Assembly: GCA_035627655.1 (NCBI GenBank)
Contig: DASPLI010000001.1
Location: 112,991-176,990 of the forward strand
Origin: Minisyncoccota bacterium
Lineage (GTDB): Bacteria; Patescibacteriota; Minisyncoccia; Phycocordibacterales; Phycocordibacteraceae
Direction: 5' to 3'
Length of the DNA stretch: 64,000 nucleotides
In this document: positions 4,769 through 58,422 of the stretch, one piece after another
Position numbering within the stretch: the first letter of the stretch is position 1
Layout: every line of letters starts with the position of its first letter
Program-made: the position numbers and the translations under genes
Notes under the pieces: generated by a model
The model's input: the letters and a program-made list of their open reading frames with translations, nothing else
Databases searched by the model: none
What the model was told of the DNA's origin: nothing

Positions 4769-5130
4769 TAGGCGCGTTACGCTCTAGAACAACAAATGCA
4801 TAGGTATAGAAAACACAGAACAGATTGTGACATTCACGATTCCGCACAGAAAACTGGACATATTAGTACTCCTCGGCTGAACGCATTGCTGCGTGTGCAC
4901 CTAGAGCCTATCAACGTAGTAGTCTGCTACGAGTCTCATAACGATTCCTAATCTTGGAGCGAGTTTCCCGCTTATATGCTTTCAGCAGTTATCTCAACCC
5001 GACATAGCTACCCAGCAATGCTCTTGGCAGAACAGCTGGTAGACCAGAGGTCAGTTCACCCCGGTCCTCTCGTACTAGGGGCAAGCCTCCGCAAGAATCA
5101 ACGCCTGTAGTAGATAGGAGACCAACCTGT

Positions 5131-5496
5131 CTCACGCACCATGTTATTTGTGTACTCCGGTTGCTCGGAGGGTCGGACTATAGCTTCGCGAGTTCTTCGC
5201 GACTGACGTTTAGTCTCTACGGGCGCTTTCGCTTCCCTCGGAATCATCCTGTTCCTTGCAGGACTTTTCCGATACGAGTCAGTTCAATCCTATATATCCC
5301 TATATAGGACCGCCGTGATGTGTTGGTTCCTTTGATCTCGCAAAATGCTTTGAACGCGAGTCAAAATCTTATTGTGTTAGTTCTTAGCTAACACATATAT
5401 AGACGAAAAAACATTTATTAGGGATTCTGATAACAATAAACTCAATGGGATTCAGACGGTGAGGGCCTCGATTCCGAAGAATCAAGAACCCTCACG
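5131..5496 (-). mobile_element. ORF-less group I intron in 23S rRNA, in the peptidyl-transferase-centre segment (equivalent to E. coli ~U2593/A2602); boundaries ±6 nt
   Basis: Exon sequence GCGAGCTGGGTTCAGACCGTGAG resumes as CGTGAGACAGGTTGGTC about 360 nt later (CGTGAG repeated at both junctions). The insert is AT-richer than the flanking rRNA. It carries a textbook group I core: GAGACTAAACG (P7 5' strand), hairpin GTCGCGAAGAACTCGCGA (P8), CTATAGTCCGAC (P7 3' strand), a CTCCG-AGCAA-CCGGAG hairpin (P9), and ends in G. A 12-bp P1-like pairing AGACCGTGAGGG/CCCTCACCGTCT lies at the 5' junction. No ORF >60 aa lies inside. Confidence 0.65.
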
Positions 5497-6910
5497 GTCT
5501 GAACCCAGCTCGCGTACCTTTTTAATTGGCGAACAGCCAAACGCTTGGGACCTTCTCCAGCCCCGCGCTAAGGTGAGCCGACATCGAGGTGCCGAACTCC
5601 GCCGTCGCTATGGACGCTTGGGCGGAACTAGCCTGTTATCCCCAGGGTAACTTTTATCCGTTAATCTCTGGCCGCATCTAAGGCGGACCATCGGTTCACT
5701 ATGCTCTGCTTTCGCATCTGCTCGGCATGTACGCCTCGCAGTTAAGCCCTCTTATGCCATTACACTATCGGCACGGTTTCCATTCGCGCCTAGAGGACCT
5801 TAATAGACTCCTCCGTTACTTTTTAGGAGGATAGCGCCCCACCAAAACTACCCGCCACGCACTGTCCCGCCGTAGTTCTATACGGAGGTTAGGAACTGCA
5901 CACTTGAAGAGTGGTATTTCACTGGCGACTCCACGTTCCCCGAAAGGAACGCTTCAAAGTCTCCCACCTATGCTACGCATCAAGCACGCAGCCCCAATAC
6001 GAAGCTGTAGTAAAGCTCCTGGGGTCTTTTCGTCTAACTACAGGTAACCGGCATCTTCACCGGTAGTGCATTTTCACCAAGCGAGTCCTCGAGACAGTTC
6101 CCCAGTCATTACACCATTCGTGCACGTCTGAACTTACCAGACAAGGAATTACGCTACCTTAGGACGATTATAGTTATCGCCGACATTCACCGGGGCTTAT
6201 ATGGCCTAGCCAACAATCCGAAGACCGTTGACCGTCCATGCTTGACCTTCCGGCATTGGTCAGGTGTCACCCCCTATACATCCTCTTACGAGTTCGCAGG
6301 GAGCTGTGTTTTTGGTAAACAGTTGCCAGGGAGTCTTTCGCTGCGGCCCGTATTGCTACGGGCAGGCCTTATTGCGAACGTACGGCCGCTATTTTGCCGA
6401 GTTCCTTGAGGACCTCTCACTTGTTCGTCTTGGTCTTCTCGACCTGAGCACCTGTGTCGGTTTGCGGTACGGGCGTCATATGTTGAAGCTTAGAAGATTT
6501 TCTTGGAACCGCGCTCTCTCTGCTCCTCCCCTCCGAAGAAGGAAATTGCCGCTTCGCTCGGAGTAATGCCTACCGGATTTCCCTAGTAGACCTCCTCACT
6601 AACGGACCCCAATCCAATAAGGGGCCAAAAATACAGCAGTCCGTCTCTCCATCGCACATATGATCGGTCACGGAATATTAACCGTGTGTCCATCGGGTGC
6701 GGCTTTCGCCATCCCCTTAGGCCCGACTAACCCGAAGATGATCACCATTGCTTCGGAAACCTTGCTCTTTCGACGTGCGGGGTTCTCACCCGCATTGTGG
6801 TTACTTGTACCTGCATTCTCACTTCGCAACGCTCCAGTATGGGTCACCCCTTTACCTTCATCGCAGATGCGAACGCTCTCCTACCGCTTGCACGCTTCAT
6901 AGAGGGCGCG

Positions 6911-7150
6911 AATCTTGTTCGCGCAAAATGTTCATGGTGCCGGGGGCTGGAGTCGAACCAGCGACCTCCCAGGGTTTTAGACCAAGGCGCTCTACCTGCT
7001 GAGCTACCCCCGCAACCATAAACCGACCGGGTGCGAGGGTCGGACATCTGCCGACCCTCGCAGCTAACGTATACCAATCACCTTGCGGTAACGGACGACA
7101 TTAGCAACGCCACATATGGGCGTCCTCGGTATTTTGAGAGTATTTTTCAA
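6911..7150 (-). other. Intervening sequence (~240 nt) replacing the tip of 23S helix 45; it contains a tRNA-like element (minus strand, 6943-7018)
   Basis: Flanks CACGTTTCATAGAGGG / CCCTCTATGAAGCGTG are complementary and correspond to E. coli GCGACGC-TTAT-GCGTTG (helix 45, ~1164-1185), between GCCGAAACTGCGG and GGTAGGAGAGCGTTC. Inside are nested perfect hairpins (GCGAGGGTCGG-CAGATGT-CCGACCCTCGC; GCGCGAA-CAAGA-TTCGCGC) and GCGGGGGTAGCTCAGCAGGTAGAGCGCCTTGGTCTAAAACCCTGGGAGGTCGCTGGTTCGACTCCAGCCCCCGGCACCA. That sequence has an acceptor stem (one G·G mismatch), canonical D arm, T arm (GCTGG-TTCGACT-CCAGC) and an encoded CCA, but its anticodon arm does not fold canonically. Confidence 0.55.
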
Positions 7151-7850
7151 CCCTCTATGAAACGTGCAAACCCGCAGTTTCGGCACTACGCTTAACCCCG
7201 ATTATCTTCGGCGCACGGACCCTCGATGAGTGAGCTGTTACGCTTTCTTTAAATGGTGGCTGCTTCTAAGCCAACATCCTCATTGTCAAAGGATCCGCAC
7301 TTCCTTGTGGATATACTCAGCGTAGATTTTGGGGCCTTAACTGGCGATCTAGGCTCTTCCCTTCTCGACCGATGGAGCTTCGCCCCCATGGTCTAACTGC
7401 CGTGCTGTAACTTCCGGTATTCGGAGGTTGATAGGAACAACGAGATTTCTCCCTGTTTGTCCCTTCCAGTGCTCTACCCCCGGAAGGATCACACGACGCC
7501 AGCCCAAAAGCTGTTTCGGAGAGAACCAGCTATTACAGTGTTCGATTAGCTTTTCACTCCTTACCACAAGTCATCCCAAGGCGTTGTACGACCAACGGGT
7601 TCGGGCCTCCATGTGGATTTCTCCACACTTCACCCTGCTCATGGCAAGCTCACACTGCTTCGGGTCGTATATATGCCACCGGCGCGCTATTCACACTCGG
7701 TTTCCCTATGGCTCCACCCAGTAACGGGCTTAGCCGAAGCGACATATATACACTCGCAGGCTCATTCTTCAATAGGCACGCTAGGATGGACCGGAGCCCA
7801 CCCTAACCCTTTGTAAGTACACGGTTTCAGTTCTATTTCACTCCCCTCTC

Positions 7851-7884
<34 letters not shown>

Positions 7885-8711
7885 TCACTATCGGTCTTAT
7901 GAGATATTTAGCCTTACCGGTTAGTTCCGGCAGATTCACCCGGGCTATTCGTGTCCCGAGCTACTCAAGAACAGAAGCACATAAGTCGTCATACATTTCG
8001 TATACGGGGCCATTACCCTCTGGGGCGCTGCTTCCCAGCAGCTTCTACTATGTAGACGTTTTGTAACTCATGCCATACAAGTATGGCGCTTCTGCCTTAC
8101 AACCCCTACTGACGAATCAATAGGTTTGGGCTTCTCCCGTTTCGCTCGCCGCTACTTAGGGAATCGCGAGAGTTGTTTTCCATTCGTACGAGCATACGCA
8201 CGAACGGAAAACAACTCGCTTTTGTTTTCTATTCCTCCAGGTACTGAGATGTTTCACTTCCCTGGGTTCGCTCCTTCTCCATACGGAGTAAGGTGATCCT
8301 TTCTGGATCGGGTTTCCCCATTCGGACATCTCCGGATCACAGGCTATAAGCCGCCTCCCCGGAGCATTTCGCAGGCTAATCACGTCCTTCATCGCTCTCA
8401 TAAGCCTAGGCATCCACCGTGCACCCTTCAGTGTTTCCTGTGCGGAAACCTGAATCCCACAATCTTTTCTGTGTTTGCACTTCTCCTCACGTTCTTGCGA
8501 AACGTGAGTCGATTACCTATGCATGTTGTCAAAGTTCTGTGTCCCTTCAAACGAAAACCGCCCCTCGGGGCGGTGTTCGTGTTTGCACACGAGGCCTTAG
8601 GGCCGTACCCGCTCCGATAAATAAGTGGTGTTCGTAGTGATAGACACGTAGGGGCTAGTCTATAGGAGCGGAAGAGGCATGTCAAGCGACCTGAAACGGC
8701 CTAGGTACGGG

Positions 8712-13039: not shown

Positions 13040-13660
13040 CTAGCTTGGCGTCTGCTCGAGGAAGAGACGGCAGGTGCCGCTATCGGTCGTGCGGTACGTG
13101 ATTGTGAAGTCGGTGTTGCCGTCAGTGGAGGTTGTCGCACCAGTTATCCGGAAACGGTCTGGGTTCGTGCCGATCATGGCATCAACCTGCGTAGCGCGGA
13201 AGCTTGGGGTCCGCCAGACCTGGTAGAAGTACGCGCGAGTATTATCGACATAGAACGCATACTGAGGAGCTGCTCCGCAGTTCGCGATCACGTTTGCGCC
13301 CGTGTAGGCGGTAAAGTCGTTGAGTCGCTTGAACGTTTCTGCATCTGCATCTGGAACGGCGAGCGCCGCGTTACCCGTGAGCGATCGGAAGAAGACGGTA
13401 TTGTTCTCGATGTAGGAATATTCGTCAACGCGAGTCGCGCCTTGCGGGAGCACGAACGGAAGTTCAGGCGGAAGGACTCCTCCACCAACACGCGGGGTTT
13501 CCGTTTCAGTGCCGGTCGTTTCAGTTGTGGTGGCAACGGTCTCCGGCGTATTGCTCTCAGGAGCTGTAGCTGGTGTCGGCTGACTTACAAACCATGCAAT
13601 GCCGAGGACGATAACAACGGCAAGAGCGGCAAGAATAAGCTGTTTCTGGGAAAGTTTCAT
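13040..13660 (-). CDS. Hypothetical secreted or membrane-anchored protein
   Basis: 206 aa. N-terminal TM/signal KQLILAALAVVIVLGIAWFV, a Thr/Glu/Pro-rich linker, then a globular domain. No family recognised. Confidence 0.5.
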   Translation of the reverse strand: MKLSQKQLILAALAVVIVLGIAWFVSQPTPATAPESNTPETVATTTETTGTETETPRVGGGVLPPELPFVLPQGATRVDEYSYIENNTVFFRSLTGNAALAVPDADAETFKRLNDFTAYTGANVIANCGAAPQYAFYVDNTRAYFYQVWRTPSFRATQVDAMIGTNPDRFRITGATTSTDGNTDFTITYRTTDSGTCRLFLEQTPS

Positions 13661-15768: not shown

Positions 15769-17739
15769 CTAGTTGAGGTATGCCTGATCCGTCTTGAAGT
15801 CTTCGAGGTTGAAGTCGTAGACGTTGAAGGTGGTCGAATCGTCGGTGTTCCAGCCGATAGCCTTGAGAAGGACACGGTAGAGACCATCATCCGCTGCGTC
15901 GCCGCTGTTGGTGCGAACGACGGTGAGGGTGAAGTCTGCATCCTCGCCTTCCTCGAGCTGTACGCCGTTGGAACCTGCCTCTGCGCCACCTGAGGTGGTG
16001 TAGGTAACACCATCAGAGATGTCGACGACAGTTGCGGTGCTGCCATCCTCTTCAACGAGGTAGCGAACGCCGTCAGTTGCGATGGTTGCATCCGGGATCG
16101 AAGTTGCAATCGTCGGAGCAGCATCGTCAGATACGTAGACCGTATCGCCGAAGGCTTCAACGTTGTACTTGATGCGGAAGGTACCAGAGTCGTTGTCAGC
16201 TGCAGAATCGTTGGCCGTTACTTCCTCAGTTGCTGAGATGAAGGTGACCATGATACCTGCTGCGCGAACTTCGATAGCACCAGCGTTTACGCTGCCGGTG
16301 ACATCAGAGTCGCCGAGCTCTTCACCAGACTCATCTTCTGCGTCGAATTCAGTGTCATCAGTCTGCTCTTCACCGAGGGCGAAGGAGACGGTGTCACCAG
16401 CATCGAGCGTGTCGCCGGTAGAGAAGAAGTCAGCCGTAACAACGACAGACACTTCCTCACCTGCGCCAATGGTCCAGTCAAGGTCATCGAAGACAACCTT
16501 CTCTGCGCTGTTGTCAGAGTCAGAGGTGCTGAGAGACTCAGAAGCAATCTCCTCGCCGTCCACAACGAGGTGGAGGGCAGAGATGAGATCGTCCGGATCG
16601 TTACCCGTACCCTCGGTAGAGGTTACGGATACGACGAGCGAGTCAATGGTGATGTCAGAGTCACCTTCAGCCTCAACGGTGAAGGACATAACCTCAACAT
16701 CATCAGTGTCATCGGTCTCGTCTACATTGATGGTGCGAGCATCGTTGATCGCATCATCATCCTCAGCGAACTTGAGCTCAGTGTCAGACGCCGAAGCGAA
16801 AGATACGAAGCTGAAGGTGCGAGTTGAGGTGCTTGGGTCTTCAGAGACCGTTGCGCCGTCAGCATCGACGAAGCGAATCTGGCGGAAGTCAACCGTCCAG
16901 GTGTCGTTCAAGTCAGAGCTGTCGAGGTTTGCAGCGCCAGTGATGGCAACCGTAAGCTCGCCAGTCTCACCTGCCTCGAGAACTGCGTCATCGAGAGAGA
17001 CAGTCTTGGTCCAGTCGTTGTCGTCGTTGAATTCATCTCCATCAACGCGAGCAACTTCCTCGCCGTCAAACCAGATAGAGACTTCAGAAGCGTAGTCCTC
17101 GAAGTCAGAACCTGCAGTACCCTCATCGAAGACAAGGCGAACTGCAGTGAGTTCAAGGTCAGAGCCATCATCGGCCTCGATCTCAAGACCAGCAATCTCC
17201 TGATCCTCCTCGTCCTCACCGACCTCCTCGTTGTTGAGGGAAGCCATGAGTTCGTAAGAATCTACGGAGCCTGCGCCACCTGAGAGGCCACCGCCGGTAG
17301 AACCGCCAGTAGAGCCGCCGGTAGAACCACCTGCCATGGCGTTAACCTTGGCGCGGGTGATAGGACCGAAGTAGCCAGAAGCTGGCGTAATGCCGTTTGC
17401 AGCCTGGAAGGCAGCAAGAGCTGACTGGGTCTGGGCACCGAAGTATCCGGTTGCGCCAGCTGGGATCGAGTAACCCTTCGAGATGAGCCAGTTCTGGAGA
17501 GCAGTAACCTCAGCACCAGAAGAACCCAAAGTGAGGTCCATGGTGAAGGTCATGCCAGCAGAAGCTGAGCCACCCTGAAGTGCAGCAATCTGAGCAAGAA
17601 GAGCGTTGATCTGAGACTGGAGGTCACCTACCGTCTGTGCGCGGGCCGCAGGGGCAAACGCAGCAAACGAAGAGAACACGAGGCCGAGACCAGCTACAAC
17701 TGCCGCGACGCGTGCAAGTGCATTGCTAGTAGCAATCAT
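15769..17739 (-). CDS. Large secreted, highly acidic low-complexity protein with an N-terminal peptidoglycan-binding domain
   Basis: 656 aa. Signal peptide with ...AARAQTV, a PG_binding_1-like segment (LGSSGAEVTALQNWLISKGYSIPAGATGYFGAQTQSALAAFQAANGI), a GGSTGGSTGGSTGG linker, then ~450 aa extremely D/E/T/S-rich. The antisense ORFs 16163-17095 and others inside it are rejected. Confidence 0.6.
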   Translation of the reverse strand: MIATSNALARVAAVVAGLGLVFSSFAAFAPAARAQTVGDLQSQINALLAQIAALQGGSASAGMTFTMDLTLGSSGAEVTALQNWLISKGYSIPAGATGYFGAQTQSALAAFQAANGITPASGYFGPITRAKVNAMAGGSTGGSTGGSTGGGLSGGAGSVDSYELMASLNNEEVGEDEEDQEIAGLEIEADDGSDLELTAVRLVFDEGTAGSDFEDYASEVSIWFDGEEVARVDGDEFNDDNDWTKTVSLDDAVLEAGETGELTVAITGAANLDSSDLNDTWTVDFRQIRFVDADGATVSEDPSTSTRTFSFVSFASASDTELKFAEDDDAINDARTINVDETDDTDDVEVMSFTVEAEGDSDITIDSLVVSVTSTEGTGNDPDDLISALHLVVDGEEIASESLSTSDSDNSAEKVVFDDLDWTIGAGEEVSVVVTADFFSTGDTLDAGDTVSFALGEEQTDDTEFDAEDESGEELGDSDVTGSVNAGAIEVRAAGIMVTFISATEEVTANDSAADNDSGTFRIKYNVEAFGDTVYVSDDAAPTIATSIPDATIATDGVRYLVEEDGSTATVVDISDGVTYTTSGGAEAGSNGVQLEEGEDADFTLTVVRTNSGDAADDGLYRVLLKAIGWNTDDSTTFNVYDFNLEDFKTDQAYLN

Positions 17740-18347
17740 GTTTTTAAGTTTGTTTTTATCGAAACGCGTGCGACGCGGCTAACTAATAAGGTGCGCCGCG
17801 CGCGCTCCGTTTCAATTGTCTTACTAATGGGTTGTGTCACATTCAGGCACCCGTGGGTGCCGTTTGCGACGGTTCACATCTTTCAGACTAGACCTACAGG
17901 GCGCAGTATCGACCCACGTCCCATAGGCTAGCTGGCAAATTTGGAATCCGTTCCGAGTTCTTCCGTATCTGAAAATGCATCCGTTCCGCGCTCGCCTTCC
18001 TTTTGTGAAGACGAGCATGAAGGCGGTCTATGACCGCTATATTCGCGCATATGCTCAATATCCCTCCCGATTGTAATCGGGAGTAATGAGCACTACGTGA
18101 AGCATGTCAATGACCGCAGGTGCCTTCGCACCCTGCCCTGCCGAAACCCGGAGGCCGTAAGCCCCGCGGGTCCGGTATGCAAAGAAGTATACCGAGCTTC
18201 CGCTTTCCGGAGGGCACAAACGAATGTGGATAACCGCCGAAAGAAACGCAAAATAGACCGCCGAGCGGTCTAGGGGTGCGAGTCTTATCGAGGGGCTCCC
18301 ACGGCGGGATACTAGCCAAATGGACACCTAAAGTCAATCCAGGTTCT

Positions 18348-19124
18348 TTAGGACTTAGCCGCAAGCGTATACGTCGTCCAGCGGCGTTCGCCGGTCTTTT
18401 GGACACGTCCTTCAGACACCAAGGCCTGGAGTTCTCGCTGAATTGTCTTTTCACTTACATCACGAATCATAGTTGATAGATCCTTTATATAGGACGGGCC
18501 CTTGGTTGAAAGGATGGAGAGGATGGCATCCCGCCGCCCGGTCTTTTGCGGCTTGTCCGATATGTGTCCTTTAGATTGTCCTTGATCGGAACTTGGCTTT
18601 GCTGTTCGTTCCAGTACACCTTCTGGTTTATTCGGACGCTCCGTTGTGCGGAACACTGCACGTGAAATAGTCGCTAGCGTCGGAGCTTCTTCAAGGAGAA
18701 CTTTTGGTTCCTCGTACGAAGCAATTTCGTGGAGGAGATGTCCTGCCTCATTACTAATGATTTCGGCATTCATGGGAGACAGGTGTCCGCCGGCTCGTGC
18801 AAGTGCAAGTAAACTACTGAGCGCAAGAAGCTCCCGAGAAAGGGCGTCGCGGGCTTCCATGGGAGGAAGAATAGACGCGTCGATAAGACCCACTGAGACA
18901 CGATCAAGACGTTCTTGAAGTGTCTTTGAATCCTTAAAGGCTGGCGCAATGAGATGTAGTGCCTTTGCAATACGTTCGGCCTTCTTATACAGGTACACCC
19001 TTCTTATGTCCTTATCAAACACGTTAGAAAATATAGATTTCTCAAGGACTAAAGAATCAATACCGGATACCTTTTTTGCATCTTTAGCGGACATAATGTC
19101 CTTTTGTATTTTGCTTTCAGACAT
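18348..19124 (-). CDS. Hypothetical protein with a C-terminal winged-helix DNA-binding domain (putative transcriptional regulator)
   Basis: 258 aa. C-terminus ...RRDAILSILSTKGPSYIKDLSTMIRDVSEKTIQRELQALVSEGRVQKTGERRWTTYTL is a DeoR/HTH_11-like wHTH. The N-terminal ~170 aa is not recognised. Confidence 0.45.
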   Translation of the reverse strand: MSESKIQKDIMSAKDAKKVSGIDSLVLEKSIFSNVFDKDIRRVYLYKKAERIAKALHLIAPAFKDSKTLQERLDRVSVGLIDASILPPMEARDALSRELLALSSLLALARAGGHLSPMNAEIISNEAGHLLHEIASYEEPKVLLEEAPTLATISRAVFRTTERPNKPEGVLERTAKPSSDQGQSKGHISDKPQKTGRRDAILSILSTKGPSYIKDLSTMIRDVSEKTIQRELQALVSEGRVQKTGERRWTTYTLAAKS

Positions 19125-31698: not shown

Positions 31699-33582
31699 TT
31701 ACTTAACGGTTCCCTTCTCTATCGTATAGGACGGATCTGAGGTTGCCTGAATATTAATTTCACGCACGGTTTGTGATACCTGTTGCTGCACGAAACGGTC
31801 AAAGCCTGCAATAACCATATCCGAAGTAAGTTCCGGACTTGTACCTTTTTGCGTAGTGCTTGGCAAGAGTTCAACCTGGAAGGCGCCCTCCTTGGTTGTA
31901 GCAGCTGCCATTTCTCCTACCGACCAGGTCATCGTACGGGATGCTTCGTCAAAGGTAATTGCTCCGACGGGCGTCACCTGGCCGGTAAAGCGAACGTAGG
32001 GTGGCAGCGTAGCGGTAACGGTCGCATCGGCAACCGAGTTGACCGTATTCTTCGCCGTGAGCAGGACTGTGTATGTTGTTTTCTGCTCTGCGACTGGCGG
32101 CCACGGACCCGTATTGGTAAATGGTCCGGTTGAGTACATCGTACGAGCAGTCAGGGAGAGATCAGTTGCTACTTTAAGCGTACGGGTTAGCGTCGAGGTA
32201 ACGGTCTCCGGCACCTTATCAGCCCCAACGCGTGTTCCGGCGACGGATACGGAGAGCGTAATCACCGGCTGACGAAGCGACGCCATCGCTGAGCCACTCT
32301 TCGTGCCAAAGAGAAACGATCCGCTACCTGTTTCTCCCGGTGCGAGATTCGCGAGTCGTTCGTTGGTCGAAACATCAAAGACAACCGTGCGGTCGGAAGA
32401 ACGGTAAAAGCCGCCACTTGCTTTTACGCTTCCCGGATCGAATGCGTCTCCCGAGATAGCAACGGTGAGCCGAGCATTAGTTACCGGTGTCGAGAGTGTG
32501 TTCTGCCATGACAGAAGCGCTGAGGTCATTTCATTGCTCTGAATCACAACCGTGTCCGAAGTATTGCGATCAATACCGAGCGAAACCGCAAGAAACGCTT
32601 TCGTGATTGAAACTGCCGCTTCTTTCGTACTGTATGGAATGCCGAGGTCGTTTGAACCAGTGGCACGCAGTGTGCCGACGGAGAAATGGAATACCCGCTC
32701 CTCCCCTTCAAGACCGGTTAGCGGTCCTTCGATGGTAATTTGTTTCTCCTCTCCAGGGCGAAGCGTGCCAAGTACAAAGAGGTCACCGACCGGAACCAGC
32801 GATGTTCTCGTTGGCGAGAAGCCGAACGGATAGTCTGCGCGTACCGCTACGTTCTCAAGCGCGCTTAGAGCATTGGAACGCACCGTAACGGTCAGCTTGA
32901 GCGGTTGTCCTGCTGAAATTTCCGAGAGTGTATCGACAGAAAGCGTAACAGGCGCGGTCGCAATCACCAGGTCGTACGAACGTTTTGAGACAAAAGTAGC
33001 GTTCGACTTTTCCGTCTGGTACTCAACCGTAATAGGAATGGAAACCTTGCTATTCTCCTCTCCAAAGAAGGTTGCGCGTACAGTTTTTCGAACGCTCTCG
33101 CCTGCTGGGATAGTGCCGAGCTCTTCAACCACACTGGTAAGTTCTTCTGATCCATCAGCCGCAGCATACACGCCCTCAGGGAACGCGAGTTCGAGCGTTG
33201 CGTCCTGAATAGCGCTTGGATTCTCGTTGGTGACGGTAATGAGGAGCGACACGCTCTCCCCTCCCGATACCGTTGTTGGACCCTCGACGTTGATATCGAG
33301 GTGGTCGCTTGAAAGCGAACGGCCGCCAAGGAATAGGACGACTGCAGCAACAATGCCGGCAAGCACAAAAAAGCCAACGGCAAATATGAGAAACAGTGCC
33401 GGACCAGAGAAGCGCGGCGGGCGGCTTTCTGGAGCCGGTCCTTCCTCATGCTTCCATCCTTCCGGTTTTGCCGGAGCAAAGTTTTGGAGCGGCTCTGCCT
33501 TGATCCCGTCGACGGGCACCGGGTCGTACAACCGATCGCGCGCTCTTCCTAGCGGACTCTCGCCATTATCTCGTTCGGACAT
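31699..33582 (-). CDS. Hypothetical large membrane-anchored surface protein with repeated beta-sandwich-like (CARDB/DUF11-like) segments
   Basis: 627 aa. N-terminal cytoplasmic tail plus one TM helix (ALFLIFAVGFFVLAGIVAAVVLFLGG), then ~520 aa of T/S/V-rich repeats. No enzyme motifs. Confidence 0.5.
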   Translation of the reverse strand: MSERDNGESPLGRARDRLYDPVPVDGIKAEPLQNFAPAKPEGWKHEEGPAPESRPPRFSGPALFLIFAVGFFVLAGIVAAVVLFLGGRSLSSDHLDINVEGPTTVSGGESVSLLITVTNENPSAIQDATLELAFPEGVYAAADGSEELTSVVEELGTIPAGESVRKTVRATFFGEENSKVSIPITVEYQTEKSNATFVSKRSYDLVIATAPVTLSVDTLSEISAGQPLKLTVTVRSNALSALENVAVRADYPFGFSPTRTSLVPVGDLFVLGTLRPGEEKQITIEGPLTGLEGEERVFHFSVGTLRATGSNDLGIPYSTKEAAVSITKAFLAVSLGIDRNTSDTVVIQSNEMTSALLSWQNTLSTPVTNARLTVAISGDAFDPGSVKASGGFYRSSDRTVVFDVSTNERLANLAPGETGSGSFLFGTKSGSAMASLRQPVITLSVSVAGTRVGADKVPETVTSTLTRTLKVATDLSLTARTMYSTGPFTNTGPWPPVAEQKTTYTVLLTAKNTVNSVADATVTATLPPYVRFTGQVTPVGAITFDEASRTMTWSVGEMAAATTKEGAFQVELLPSTTQKGTSPELTSDMVIAGFDRFVQQQVSQTVREINIQATSDPSYTIEKGTVK

Positions 33583-37518: not shown

Positions 37519-37540
37519 AATTCCCTTATCCTAGGCGGTT

Positions 37541-37580
37541 TGTGGATAAAAAGAAAGACCGGCGCGCTCGCGCCGGTCTT
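37541..37580 (-). terminator. Intrinsic terminator/attenuator ending ~22 nt upstream of the ileS start codon
   Basis: Perfect 12-bp hairpin AAGACCGGCGCG-CTC-GCGCCGGTCTT, followed on the minus strand by TCTTTTTATCC, then AAGGGAATT-ATG (ileS). Confidence 0.6.
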
Positions 37581-37807
37581 GGCCTTCATTACCGTTTCTT
37601 GCGAAGGCAATTGGTCGGGAGGATGTGCTGTGGCGCCATATCCTTTGTTGCGCGCGCCGCGAGAACTTTCGCTTCGTGCGCTTGAGACATAGGCGCGTAT
37701 CGGTCGCGGTTGTGAAGCGGTACCGATTCTTGCTGCATGGATTCTCTCCCTAATCTAAGCTCCCGAAAGAGCTATGGAGGCGTAGCGTAGCATATGAGCC
37801 TCATGCC

Positions 37808-37848
37808 GCAAGAGTAAAAGAACGGCCGACGTGTATTACGTCGGCCGT
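37808..37848 (-). terminator. Intrinsic terminator (end of an argS-downstream transcript; upstream boundary of the ileS leader)
   Basis: CGGCCGACG-TGTATTA-CGTCGGCCG hairpin, followed on the minus strand by TTCTTTTACTCTT. Confidence 0.5.
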
Positions 37849-38057
37849 GTGATCACGCCTGTTTCCGATTTCCAGACTTCGCCTGAACGCTGGGCTGCTG
37901 ACGTTCCTCCCGCCGCTTCAATTGCGAGCGTAGAAACATAAGTCGCACCGCGCCGGAGATACTGCGTGGCCTCATCTGAGCAAGGTCACGCGATGACAAA
38001 TCTTGAAAAGCAGAGACAGACGGATGGTGAGGGTTACCTTTCATGTTCTTCCCCCGT

Positions 38058-38089
38058 TTTGAAAAAACAATCGCGCGATTGCGCGACCA
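38058..38089 (-). terminator. Intrinsic terminator after argS
   Basis: TCGCGC-AATC-GCGCGA hairpin (palindromic CAATCGCGCGATTG), followed on the minus strand by TTGTTTTTTC. Confidence 0.5.
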
Positions 38090-38125
38090 AGGCACCATAC
38101 CACAGCCGTTTTCAGGACCGCAACC

Positions 38126-54339: not shown

Positions 54340-55599
54340 ATGCCTGAATTTCCTCCGCGTACTGGCGAGCGCAATGAATGGTGGCGACGACTCGGACGAC
54401 GAGCCATGACTCCGTTTGTAGGTATGGAAGCAATTTGGCAGGACGCGCAGAAAGCGTCTGCTGAACGAGAACTTAAATGGGAAGAGGTAACGTCGAGCCT
54501 CTACCACTTCCCTGAGTGGGCGATGCTCGATCTTCGTGCACAATGGGAAGCATTTCGTTTTGAACAGCTGCAAAAGCCAAAAAATCAGGAGCGTGTTGAG
54601 GGGCGACGAGAAAAGATCCAGGAACTCCACGATGATCTTGCCGCAGAAGAACACCTGCTGCAGGAGCGCATATATGCATGGCGCACGCAAACGGAAGAAG
54701 CGCTGGATGCATTCAATGACGACCTACAGGAGCTCACCGGAAACCGCCTGGCCTGGAAGGACAAAACCTTCGACTCCCTCCTGTCGACAGTGGAGGTGAC
54801 GATGGAAGCGCTCAAAGAGCAGATGAAGATGATTGAGAAGCATGGCACACACGTCGCACAACAAAGTGAAAATGTTGCCGGTGAGTTGCAGTCGTACGAA
54901 CAGATACACACGAACACAGGTGAAGCGATCAAGCGGTTGAAACTCTTCAAGCGCGATCTGATTGTTTCTTGGGGTGAAGATGTAACAAAGCTCGGTACAG
55001 AGGAAACCATACCGGACATCGCCCATCGGATTACCAAAAAGCGCGCGAAGCTTGAGAAGGCGCTGAAGAGTGAAGGTACGCCTGAAGCTATCGCCATGCG
55101 CCGACAGCAGCTTGTTGCTGAACGTGATGCGCTCCTTGAAAGCGTCGATCACGCGAAACTCCGCATTGAGATGTACCGCCGCAAGCTCAACGAAAAGAAG
55201 AGCGCCATCAAGGAACTGCTTGCCGGTAACGATCCACGCATTGCACAGGAGCAGCGTGAACGAGCAGGTATTGAAGTATTCTTGGATCAGCTTGCTGGGT
55301 ATGAGAGTCTTGCTGTTCGATTCGAAACACCGGAGATGGTGCGACTCTCCACTGAGCATGCCGAGACCGTACGCGATCTCGGCGACCGTCCGCTCGCTAT
55401 CGATCTCGAGCGCATACTTGAACGCACGCCGGTACCTAATGATTTGCGTCTTACCCTTGAGCAGTCGTTCGGCGAACGGTATGAACCCGTTACGCTCGAT
55501 CAGGTGCGCGGACTGCGCAATATTGTTCTTGGGTACGTGCACTACACGTATACTGAACCCGATACCCAAACGCCTGATGAACTAACTGAAGCTGCATGA
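54340..55599 (+). CDS. Hypothetical coiled-coil protein
   Basis: 419 aa, extensively heptad-like and E/K/R/Q-rich. No family recognised. Flanked by tRNA genes. Confidence 0.45.
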   Translation: MPEFPPRTGERNEWWRRLGRRAMTPFVGMEAIWQDAQKASAERELKWEEVTSSLYHFPEWAMLDLRAQWEAFRFEQLQKPKNQERVEGRREKIQELHDDLAAEEHLLQERIYAWRTQTEEALDAFNDDLQELTGNRLAWKDKTFDSLLSTVEVTMEALKEQMKMIEKHGTHVAQQSENVAGELQSYEQIHTNTGEAIKRLKLFKRDLIVSWGEDVTKLGTEETIPDIAHRITKKRAKLEKALKSEGTPEAIAMRRQQLVAERDALLESVDHAKLRIEMYRRKLNEKKSAIKELLAGNDPRIAQEQRERAGIEVFLDQLAGYESLAVRFETPEMVRLSTEHAETVRDLGDRPLAIDLERILERTPVPNDLRLTLEQSFGERYEPVTLDQVRGLRNIVLGYVHYTYTEPDTQTPDELTEAA

Positions 55600-56805: not shown

Positions 56806-57356
56806 GGTGCAAGTACTCCCGTTAGCGTAATCGTAAACGGAATATCCGATTCCGCTGCATATACCGAGAGTGGAAGGTTGGCGGAGGATACGAACGAGAG
56901 ATTGTTGAGTGCCGTGTGATAGCGGCGTAATGCCTCCCGAGAAGCGGCAATGCCGGTAATCGTCATTGCAGACTCGCCGCTTGGGCTTGGAGAAACGGAG
57001 AAGCCGGTGAGGCGCACGCCCTCGTGCGGGAGTGCAAGGAAATCGCGTACGACGGGCGTTGTTTTTGGCTGTGCAAGCAGCGCGGAGAGCTCCCCCGCCT
57101 TCCTGGCAAGCTCGTTCGCACGCTCGCTCACCGGCCGCTCATTGGCCGCGCCAGGAAGCAGTGTGAGATCTGCAAGATGCTTTTGGCGTGTCGCTACCTC
57201 TTCCGAAAGATAAAAGTACGACGGGAGCAATAAAATACCGTGCAGGACCACCACCACAAATACAACGCTCGCAGCAACGGTAATCAGACGAAGCATATAC
57301 TCGCGATTGAGGTCGCGCAGACGATTGGCCGGTAAGAGATTGGTGAGGTTAGGCAT
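56802..57356 (-). CDS. pilN: Type IV pilus assembly protein PilN-like
   Basis: Start at MPNLTNLLPANRLRDLNREYMLRLITVAASVVFVVVVLHGILLLPSYFYL (cytoplasmic tail plus one TM, as in PilN). It overlaps pilM by 8 nt. The ORF-track N-terminal extension is rejected. Confidence 0.5.
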   Translation of the reverse strand: MPNLTNLLPANRLRDLNREYMLRLITVAASVVFVVVVLHGILLLPSYFYLSEEVATRQKHLADLTLLPGAANERPVSERANELARKAGELSALLAQPKTTPVVRDFLALPHEGVRLTGFSVSPSPSGESAMTITGIAASREALRRYHTALNNLSFVSSANLPLSVYAAESDIPFTITLTGVLAP

Positions 57357-58422
57357 AGTCTCGTAGGGCAAGTCCGATCGCCGTTCCGTACGCAAGAGAC
57401 GCCGTGTACTCAAGCGGTGGCAGCCAAACCTCGCGTGGGGCGAAATTGGTGAACACGTCTCCAAGCGCAACAGGAACCTTGAGCGATGCTTCAAGATACT
57501 CCGGAAGTCCGAGCACTGTTGCGTTACCACCGACCAGGAGCACGCGCGAAACCGGTTCATGGGTCGCGTTTGCGCGCGACTGCCAATACTCAAGACGCTT
57601 CATGATTTCGTCTCGAATGACCGATACCGTCGAGAGCATGGCAGCCAAGTATTCTTCGTTTCCGCTTCCGGGCGCAATTCCCTTCTCCGCTTTAACTCGC
57701 TTGGCTTCTTCCTCCGAAACGCCGAAATGTTTCTGGACGGCAAGCGTAAGTGCGTGACCGCCGATATCCAACGTTGTAACAAATCGCGGAAGGCGCGCCG
57801 TTGCTATCAAAAGCTTGGTGGTTGTTTTCCCAATATCAATAATGAGTACCGTTTCGTCCGTGCGTACTGGAAGGAGTGCTCGCGGAAGCGCGAACGTTTC
57901 GCTCTCAAGCGCACGAACCCGTACGCGCGCTTCGTCAAACACCGCGAGTGTTTCTTCAACGACGCGCCTGGCATATCCAACGCCTACCAGCTGTGTTCCC
58001 TGCTCGCCTTTGCGCACCGGAGCAACCGTAAACTCTACGTCTTGAGACGGAAGTGGAACGTATTCTTCAAGATGCTGCTCGACGGCGATCTTCTGCGCCC
58101 CTGGCTCGTCTGCTTGCACCACCGCTTCAAACAAATAGCCGCGCGCTTCTGGAAGTGCTACGTTTGCAAAGCGGACCTTATGTTTTTTCATCAAATCCTT
58201 GAGCGTGCTTGCAACAGCGCCCGGATCGCGAAGCTCCCCGCCGACAACCGCTCCGGTCGGAAGCGCAACTTCGTCAAATGCCGACAACTCAAGGCCGTGT
58301 ACATGTTCGCGGATGCGGGCAAGTTTAATACCGCTCGTGGAGATATCGATGCCTGCTGACGGCATCGATAGATAGTCTGGCGGCGCAAGTTCGACCCGAA
58401 GAAAGCGCGAAAGAGCCTGCAT
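57349..58422 (-). CDS. pilM: Type IV pilus assembly ATPase-fold protein PilM
   Basis: 357 aa, actin/FtsA-like. ...SAGIDISTSGIKLARI... and ...TTLDIGGHALTLAV... Confidence 0.75.
   Translation of the reverse strand: MQALSRFLRVELAPPDYLSMPSAGIDISTSGIKLARIREHVHGLELSAFDEVALPTGAVVGGELRDPGAVASTLKDLMKKHKVRFANVALPEARGYLFEAVVQADEPGAQKIAVEQHLEEYVPLPSQDVEFTVAPVRKGEQGTQLVGVGYARRVVEETLAVFDEARVRVRALESETFALPRALLPVRTDETVLIIDIGKTTTKLLIATARLPRFVTTLDIGGHALTLAVQKHFGVSEEEAKRVKAEKGIAPGSGNEEYLAAMLSTVSVIRDEIMKRLEYWQSRANATHEPVSRVLLVGGNATVLGLPEYLEASLKVPVALGDVFTNFAPREVWLPPLEYTASLAYGTAIGLALRDYA

Follow-up and report, generated by a model that had tools for sequence, protein, structure and literature searches.

A conserved, covarying RNA ahead of a surface-protein gene in Paceibacteria: a candidate long mRNA leader

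What occupies a gap of 608 nucleotides (nt) between two neighboring genes of a small bacterial genome? The question is raised by positions 17740–18347 of a 64,000-nt stretch of DNA from a Minisyncoccota bacterium (contig DASPLI010000001.1, positions 112,991 to 176,990), the whole of which is called the window in the following. In small genomes the usual cause of such long gaps is RNase P RNA, transfer-messenger RNA (tmRNA), 6S RNA or signal recognition particle (SRP) RNA. As a preliminary description of the region had correctly noted, the gap lies between the gene of an acidic surface protein and that of a winged helix-turn-helix (wHTH) protein; both genes are on the minus strand. The downstream gene (15769–17739) codes for an acidic protein of 656 amino acids (aa) with a hydrophobic segment at its N-terminus and a PG_binding_1 domain (PF01471, E 1.6e-13), which to judge from its sequence is probably the S-layer or main wall protein; the upstream gene (18348–19124) codes for a 258-aa protein with an N-terminal four-helix bundle and a C-terminal winged helix. 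Here we describe a large folded RNA encoded on the minus strand of the gap, and we give somewhat better than an even chance to the reading that it acts in cis as a structured 5' untranslated leader of about 510 nt on the mRNA of the surface protein.

Conservation and covariation of the gap RNA

The GC content of the gap is normal (0.51–0.60 in 200-nt windows) and resembles that of its flanks, and the gap holds no credible open reading frame (ORF), as had been stated before on both counts. Only short, overlapping frames of 40–115 aa are present, the two longest of which have no Pfam match. Substitutions in comparison to close relatives do not show a three-base periodicity (47/49/51, 42/47/56 and 51/50/57), wobble positions are absent from the invariant 60-nt runs of the close-relative alignment, and no frame is conserved. 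A protein-coding gene, a small ORF or a leader peptide was rejected on the basis of the missing periodicity, frame conservation and Pfam match.

The gap is, however, densely folded. Three of the four hairpins quoted as perfect in the preliminary description are indeed so, namely GGCACCC/GGGTGCC at 17846–17861, CTCCCGATT/AATCGGGAG at 18064–18083 and TAGACCGC/GCGGTCTA at 18254–18272, while the fourth (GCAGGTGC...GCACCTGC) is imperfect, its actual sequence being GCAGGTGCCTTCGCACCCTGC with a GGTGC/GCACC core. The minus strand of the 608-nt gap reaches a minimum free energy of −257 kcal/mol versus −202 kcal/mol for dinucleotide shuffles (z −7.4) and the plus strand gives a similar z of −7.5, compared to −3.55 and −0.15 for two coding controls of equal length. 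Folding of the gap is beyond chance.

Is this RNA a member of a known family? A comparison with Rfam and an analysis of conservation and covariation had both been proposed as checks in the preliminary description. Covariance models of Rfam 15 were run at gathering score over the window and at E≤10 on 17600–18500. They found the rRNA and tRNAs of the window and none in the gap, where chance microRNA matches were the only ones at E≤10; 12 member loci of the family described below were equally without a match, and ARAGORN detected neither a tRNA nor a tmRNA on 17000–19000. RNase P RNA was rejected for want of a match to RNaseP_bact_a/b and of P4, CR-I and CR-V motifs. We also rejected tmRNA (no tRNA-like domain, no tag ORF, no match to the Rfam tmRNA clan or by ARAGORN), 6S RNA (no Rfam match, and a multi-branched fold of about 510 nt), SRP (4.5S) RNA (no match to its Rfam covariance model) and the known riboswitch classes (no aptamer match at E≤10 in the gap or in the 12 member loci). 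To the extent that covariance models can decide, this excludes RNase P, tmRNA, 6S and SRP RNAs and all curated riboswitches. From the candidates listed earlier, RNase P RNA, tmRNA and 6S RNA therefore drop out, and the long structured leader is the one favored by the evidence. A literature search did not find a described leader or S-layer RNA of such kind in Patescibacteria or Paceibacteria.

The element was found in about 55 other distinct sequences, drawn from five contigs reached via wHTH homologues, about 30 contigs of metagenomes and 30 genomes of GTDB species. For collection scans the most conserved block, which forms helix P9, was used as pattern. The pattern GCCANCTAGCC...GTCGA matched 30 GTDB species-representative genomes with one copy each, and 29 of these carry names of the Patescibacteria group (Paceibacterota, Parcubacteria, Patescibacteria group, 'uncultured Candidatus Saccharibacteria' and one 'uncultured bacterium'). 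One locus, L037 (JBLNCF010000015.1), is labelled 'Bacillota bacterium'; it shows the full Paceibacteria-type order of wHTH, RNA, surface-protein and ftsK genes and is probably a mislabelled or chimeric bin. A relaxed pattern yielded 33 metagenome contigs, two of which represent the same chance match in high-GC coding sequence. Two further loci reached via wHTH homologues carry the element as well, one of them with a variant motif, which indicates that the family is wider than the search pattern.

Conservation of the gap is strong at several distances. In the contigs of the closest wHTH homologues (66–73% identical) the gap after the gene again measures 570–606 nt. The gap and its counterparts in six close relatives have a column identity of 80%, and stretches of up to roughly 60 nt do not vary at all; the DNA of the gap is therefore better conserved than the neighboring protein. 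Invariant words are kept in more distant loci, where the wHTH proteins are 56–63% identical, and blocks of 9–28 nt remain invariant although the downstream protein is only 31–50% identical in most members.

Covariation was determined on two alignments. For P9 and for P11, the terminal hairpin before the start codon, pairing was measured on a MAFFT alignment of 32 sequences with partner sliding and 500 shuffles as controls: together the two helices are 95.5% paired versus 27–49% after sliding, and none of the 500 shuffles reaches the observed value. P11 shows compensatory changes at all 10 modelled pairs of the 32 sequences. The 15 pairs of P9 are 99.4% paired, with compensations from G-C to U-A and from C-G to U-A and with a conserved U.G (30 of 32) and G.U (26 of 32). 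For the nested helices of the 5' domain a consensus was derived from subgroup alignments and the covariance model of one subgroup was run on all loci. On the resulting alignment 35 pairs are 85.5% paired versus 34–44% after sliding, again with none of 500 shuffles reaching this value, and 31 of the 35 pairs have changed on both sides. A first covariance model built from eight similar sequences was narrow, giving 17 matches at E≤0.01, and was run at E≤10 with rows chosen by position. RNAalifold did not return a structure for the 5' and central modules on all-member MAFFT alignments because the variable stems misalign, and a rigid column-offset pair scan over all members found nothing. P5 and P6 form in almost all members at a matching position, on stems that differ. 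In sum compensatory changes support at least eight helices. The preliminary description had proposed an unassigned structured RNA and had reckoned with the case that neither conservation nor covariation would be seen; both are present in the related sequences. Judged on these sequences, the family is new in that it covers a conserved, covarying RNA that is not classified in Rfam 15.

The strand could be assigned as well. G.U cells outnumber A.C cells by 127 to 16, pairing amounts to 95.5% on the sense strand versus 81.5% on the antisense strand, and the GNRA and C(UACG)G apical loops read correctly on the minus strand only. Together with the orientation of the promoter described below, the G.U asymmetry and the loops place the RNA on the minus strand, in sense orientation for both genes.

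These observations also bear on the question whether conservation might act on the level of DNA, with the gap serving as a complex promoter or operator or as an origin of replication. Several invariant words do match the consensus of DNA sites, namely the DnaA box TTATCCACA, a −35-like TTGACA, a −10-like GTATACT and the palindrome TTAATTAA, and GTATACT is the usual −10 box of this genome. We nonetheless regard a role of this kind as very improbable: the helices on either side of GTATACT show compensatory changes, the G.U asymmetry is strand-specific, GTATACT is not preceded by a −35 box at a suitable distance, words resembling a DnaA box show no enrichment (the 64 kb contain 10 that differ from it at one position at most, versus 7.6 expected), and neither a GC-skew switch nor an AT-rich unwinding element is present. 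An oriC or a regulation by DnaA was rejected, as the region holds a single perfect box without a cluster, skew switch or AT-rich element. Likewise an internal promoter at GTATACT was rejected as the principal explanation, as the spanning helices covary and the −35 box is not conserved.

Position of the RNA relative to the surface-protein gene

In every locus with enough flanking sequence the order is wHTH gene, RNA, PG_binding_1 surface-protein gene. The RNA is encoded on the same strand as the surface-protein gene and at a constant position relative to its start codon, which in all loci follows the P9 motif at a distance of 150–210 nt. The element is single-copy in each genome, and among the approximately 55 loci none was located away from a surface-protein gene. 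In one locus (L021, 3914–7805) two tandem paralogous PG_binding_1 surface-protein genes follow the RNA and only the first is preceded by the leader; this arrangement is seen directly in L021, while in L067 an extra surface-protein paralogue appears to stand directly after the RNA.

Consensus scans of 17740–18250 detected neither a terminator nor a promoter-like site that would separate the RNA from the ORF, and the run that follows P11 consists of A, not of U. A terminator after the RNA and a promoter before the ORF are both missing, the 3' modules are in register with the start codon and the element never occurs away from the gene, so that a leader of the surface-protein mRNA is the most likely reading.

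The same evidence has to be weighed against an independent RNA, either a stable trans-acting RNA or scaffold of a ribonucleoprotein (RNP), perhaps together with the adjacent wHTH protein, or an RNA cut from the surface-protein transcript. With its size, number of helices and invariant blocks the gap RNA is closer to OLE, ROOL and raiA RNA than to ordinary leaders, it is invariably adjacent to the wHTH gene, and the N-terminal domain of the wHTH protein shows a weak similarity to the 'S23/IVS protein' fold (2rld; Foldseek E 0.05, TM score 0.66). This structural match is weak, however. The missing terminator and promoter as well as the strict association with the surface-protein gene in about 55 loci speak against an RNA of its own, and so do the fixed distance of its 3' end from the start codon and the conservation of P11 and the A/U tract together with the AUG. 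An independent RNA therefore seems unlikely to us.

A leader of this length stands out in this genome. Most genes of the window show a −10 box 6–9 nt before the ATG and no Shine-Dalgarno sequence, with −10-like boxes such as GGTATACT, GCTATACT, GGTATAGT and TAGGAT (e.g. genes 31699–33582, 54340–55599, 57349–58422 and 13040–13660), which suggests that leaderless mRNAs are widespread. As most genes look leaderless, a leader of 0.5 kb would be exceptional here.

Anatomy of the predicted leader and its possible function

All features of the RNA are described in the following from 5' to 3' on the minus strand. A sigma-70-type promoter sequence is located at 18309–18337, consisting of TTGACT (18337–18332), a 17-nt spacer and TAGTAT (18314–18309). 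It begins 10 nt past the stop codon of the wHTH gene and is the only promoter-like site that a consensus scan found in 17500–18600. In about 50 of 52 family members TTGAC-N16-19-TAnnnT occurs at the same place. The predicted 5' end of the RNA, GUGGGAGCC at 18294–18302, forms the 5' strand of helix P1; nearly all members show a conserved GUGRNARC 6–8 nt past the −10 box. The first 8–11 nt of this 5' end can pair with the invariant GUUAUCCAC located 70–90 nt downstream, the duplex having a free energy of −8 kcal/mol or lower in 46 of 50 members (mean −12.3 versus −7.7 for shuffles), and the flanks of P1 beyond the invariant box covary. Taking this predicted start, the distance to the AUG has a median of 510 nt and ranges between 447 and 566 nt.

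P1 encloses the apex hairpin P2 (18244–18272), UAGACCGC-UCG-GCGGUCUA followed by UUUUGCGUUU, to which a terminator scan assigned the form of an intrinsic terminator. A homologous GGCCG-GNRA-CGGCC with a U-run is found in many members; the apex is terminator-like in 20 of 50 by a strict rule and, on inspection by eye, in about 30; some subgroups are without it. The 3' strand of P1 is the invariant GUUAUCCACA at 18225–18234, whose DNA equals the DnaA-box consensus TTATCCACA. This box is present in every member with enough upstream sequence, though it lies outside the scan pattern, and the copy at 18225–18233 is the sole perfect one in this intergenic region. TTATCCACA is best read as the 3' strand of P1. 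This pairing accounts for its position but not fully for its absolute invariance while the partner strand varies.

In the window and in many members a GC hairpin with a U-run comes no more than about 50 nt after the promoter, an arrangement suggestive of attenuation. In such a narrower form of the leader model, which may be riboswitch-like, the core would sense a ligand or a protein and decide on the passage of P2 or on the accessibility of the start region. The extreme conservation of loop and junction nucleotides would fit, and a precedent exists in the SLH motif RNA, a riboswitch candidate upstream of S-layer-homology (SLH) genes (PMC6429828). Several findings make this version quite unlikely. 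The terminator-like apex of P2 is missing in several subgroups (e.g. L019, L024 and L054), and the conserved core is located downstream of the P2 terminator so that it cannot fold in time for control. Pairing of the box with the conserved GGAUGAAC, the only alternative pairing tested, was no better than in shuffles (mean z −0.4). Finally the element exceeds known aptamers several-fold in size, and no known riboswitch family of Rfam was matched by the gap and the 12 loci.

Downstream of the box follows the conserved core. The P3 domain (18116–18221) is a long hairpin, branched in this genome, with the invariant GGUAUACU (18186–18193) near its apex; GTATACT is found 39–42 nt after the box in all members but one, in which the distance is 47 nt. 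The invariant junction UUGACA (18105–18110), embedded in UCAUUGACA, occurs as TTGA[C/T/A]A in all members. The P4 region (18040–18100) is an expanded hairpin in the subgroup of the window and includes CUCCCGAUU-AC-AAUCGGGAG at 18064–18083, a stem that is replaced in close relatives by the compensated GGCUCC/GGGGCU and GCCACC/GGUGGC. Other subgroups have a small hairpin with an AAUAG loop at this position. A subgroup consisting of L006, L014, L019, L025, L027, L046, L057, L064, L069 and L070 carries two to three extra long hairpins between P4 and P5, that is between UUGACA and CCGUC, and the subgroup of the window has expanded differently. Like ribosomal and other large RNAs, the RNA can accommodate large insertions that are specific to a lineage and confined to fixed points.

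According to the fold, the equivalent of P5 is the hairpin GCGGUC-AUA-GACCGC at 18023–18037; in other subgroups P5 is an 8-bp hairpin with a GUAAGAA or GUAAUGA loop on many different stems. P6 (17990–18016), GCUCGUCUUC...GGAAGGCGAGC, begins with a conserved CGUC and takes the form CCGUC...GACGG. The P7/P8 region (17933–17989) shows the conserved sequences CAGAACGGAUGCA and UACGGAWGAAC and contains the small hairpin GGAA-CGGA-UUCC (17943–17954), which covaries between subgroups, e.g. to AGGCA-CGGA-UGCCU. P9 (17887–17932), GCUAGCCUAUGGGACGUGGGUCGAUACUGCGCCCUGUAGGUCUAGU, is a long helix that ends in a GUCGAUA loop. It is followed by the variable hairpin GGCACC-CACG-GGUGCC (17846–17861), whose homologues present C(UACG)G-type loops on different stems, and by P11 (17758–17816) with the loop CCUUAUUAGUUAG just upstream of the start codon. 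An A/U-rich spacer without Shine-Dalgarno sequence, AUAAAAACAAACUUAAAAAC at 17740–17757, leads to the AUG at 17739–17737, the family consensus before the start being AAAUUAAUUAAAAA...AUG. The spacer often holds a palindrome-like AAATTAATTAAA (TTAATTAA), e.g. in L012, L017 and L029, which could be a protein-binding site on the DNA.

How might a leader of this architecture work? Transcription would proceed from the TTGAC-N17-TAnnnT promoter just past the stop codon of the wHTH gene. Pairing of the 5' end with GUUAUCCAC would close a long 5'-terminal rod, the apex of which resembles a terminator in many members. The sequence-conserved multi-helix core from P3 to P9 would follow, and then the variable UNCG-capped hairpins, P11, the A/U spacer and the AUG. 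The paired 5' end and the dense structure might shield a very abundant mRNA from 5'-end-dependent decay, and the structure might deny Rho access to 0.5 kb of untranslated RNA. P11 and the unstructured A/U tract could provide a ribosome landing site in an otherwise leaderless-looking genome. The invariant core may bind a trans factor, either a protein or a small ligand, which would tune expression.

Several points weigh against the leader interpretation. Where the RNA begins, whether it continues into the ORF and how it might be processed are predictions from the sequence. A terminator-like hairpin 45–75 nt past the predicted start would, at face value, stop many transcripts. The 5' domain was aligned by fitting to the structure and some of the rows are junk, its signal being large nonetheless, and the S-layer label of the downstream protein is based solely on domain and composition. 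Furthermore invariant blocks of 10–28 nt far exceed the needs of a simple stabilizer or translation enhancer.

The invariant blocks of the core rather seem to point to a specific partner. One may think of a class of large RNAs with a complex fold that is new and restricted to Paceibacteria, in which P3–P9 would form a tertiary core that binds a dedicated partner, possibly the wHTH protein or a cell-envelope metabolite. This we consider a tentative possibility and on the whole doubtful. If it is true, the RNA would be part of an RNP or a sensor controlling the main surface protein, rather than a passive stabilizing leader.

Neighboring loci and comparison with known RNAs

The wHTH protein, which is derived from a Candidatus Paceibacterota metagenome-assembled genome, has more than 1400 homologues. 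Its AlphaFold model (pLDDT 74.5) consists of an N-terminal four-helix bundle, a disordered linker and an ArsR/DsrD-like winged helix. The homologues (P0001–P0120) are very widespread in Paceibacteria and their genes are always divergent from ftsK, with recA beyond.

The gap had been called the longest non-coding stretch, which is roughly right for its 608 nt, but it is not unique. A second ORF-poor gap of about 607 nt lies at 37519–38125 between the genes of the arginyl- and isoleucyl-tRNA synthetases, provided that a domain-less 207-aa ORF there is spurious. It has a fold z of −5.8, two terminator-like hairpins and no Rfam match, and it contains a second perfect TTATCCACA at 37541–37549. The adjoining isoleucyl-tRNA synthetase of 1120 aa carries an inserted His_Phos_1 (histidine phosphatase) domain.

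In the rRNA locus of the window the 23S rRNA match (4845–8440, minus strand) extends over 3596 nt versus 2925 positions of the model. Inside the 23S gene, and in the same orientation, lies a tRNA-Leu(UAA)-like gene (6935–7013, minus strand; ARAGORN, and 47 bits with the Rfam tRNA model); it is contained in an insertion of about 255 nt that falls between positions 677 and 1822 of the model. The 23S is followed by 5S; as no 16S is present within the window, the 16S gene is unlinked.

To our knowledge very few specific structured RNAs have been described for the candidate phyla radiation, and none that is tied to the cell envelope. The gap RNA is large, strongly conserved and linked to the gene of a probable S-layer or main wall protein of uncultured, cell-attached organisms. 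As a leader in a mostly leaderless genome it would imply a special post-transcriptional handling of a single transcript. With it, gene regulation in Paceibacteria can be approached by concrete tests, and RNA databases gain a new family; its compact size of about 0.5 kb and its many invariant junction nucleotides make it suitable for structural work, and it could act as a clade marker.

Comparison with known systems sets the RNA apart from several groups. 6S RNA is a rod of about 180 nt with a central bubble, in contrast to the multi-branched architecture found here. Leaders with an extreme 5' stem-loop are known from the abundant mRNAs of Lactobacillus slpA, E. coli ompA and B. subtilis aprE, where the stem-loop is thought to prolong the half-life, and S-layer leaders of Lactobacillus and other bacteria are structured 5' untranslated regions of about 100–200 nt which are not conserved between genera. 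The predicted 5' end of the gap RNA is likewise paired, in P1, but the RNA differs from the slpA, ompA and aprE leaders in its length of about 510 nt and in that invariant blocks and 10 or more helices are shared by many species. In size class, number of helices, conserved loops and junctions and restricted range it is similar to OLE, GOLLD, ROOL, HEARO and raiA RNA, and OLE is encoded beside the gene of its protein partner. It differs from these in that their Rfam models are unmatched, in being fixed in cis before one ORF and in lacking a terminator of its own. The nearest analogue, as far as the comparison goes, appears to be the SLH motif RNA, a riboswitch candidate of Synergistaceae and Firmicutes that precedes S-layer-homology genes (Stav et al. 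2019, PMC6429828). Both RNAs are conserved and structured, both are located upstream of genes of S-layer-type surface proteins and for both a cis-regulatory role is proposed; the SLH motif is a small motif from outside the Patescibacteria, and it is by its size of about 0.5 kb, its multi-domain architecture and its taxon that the gap RNA is set apart.

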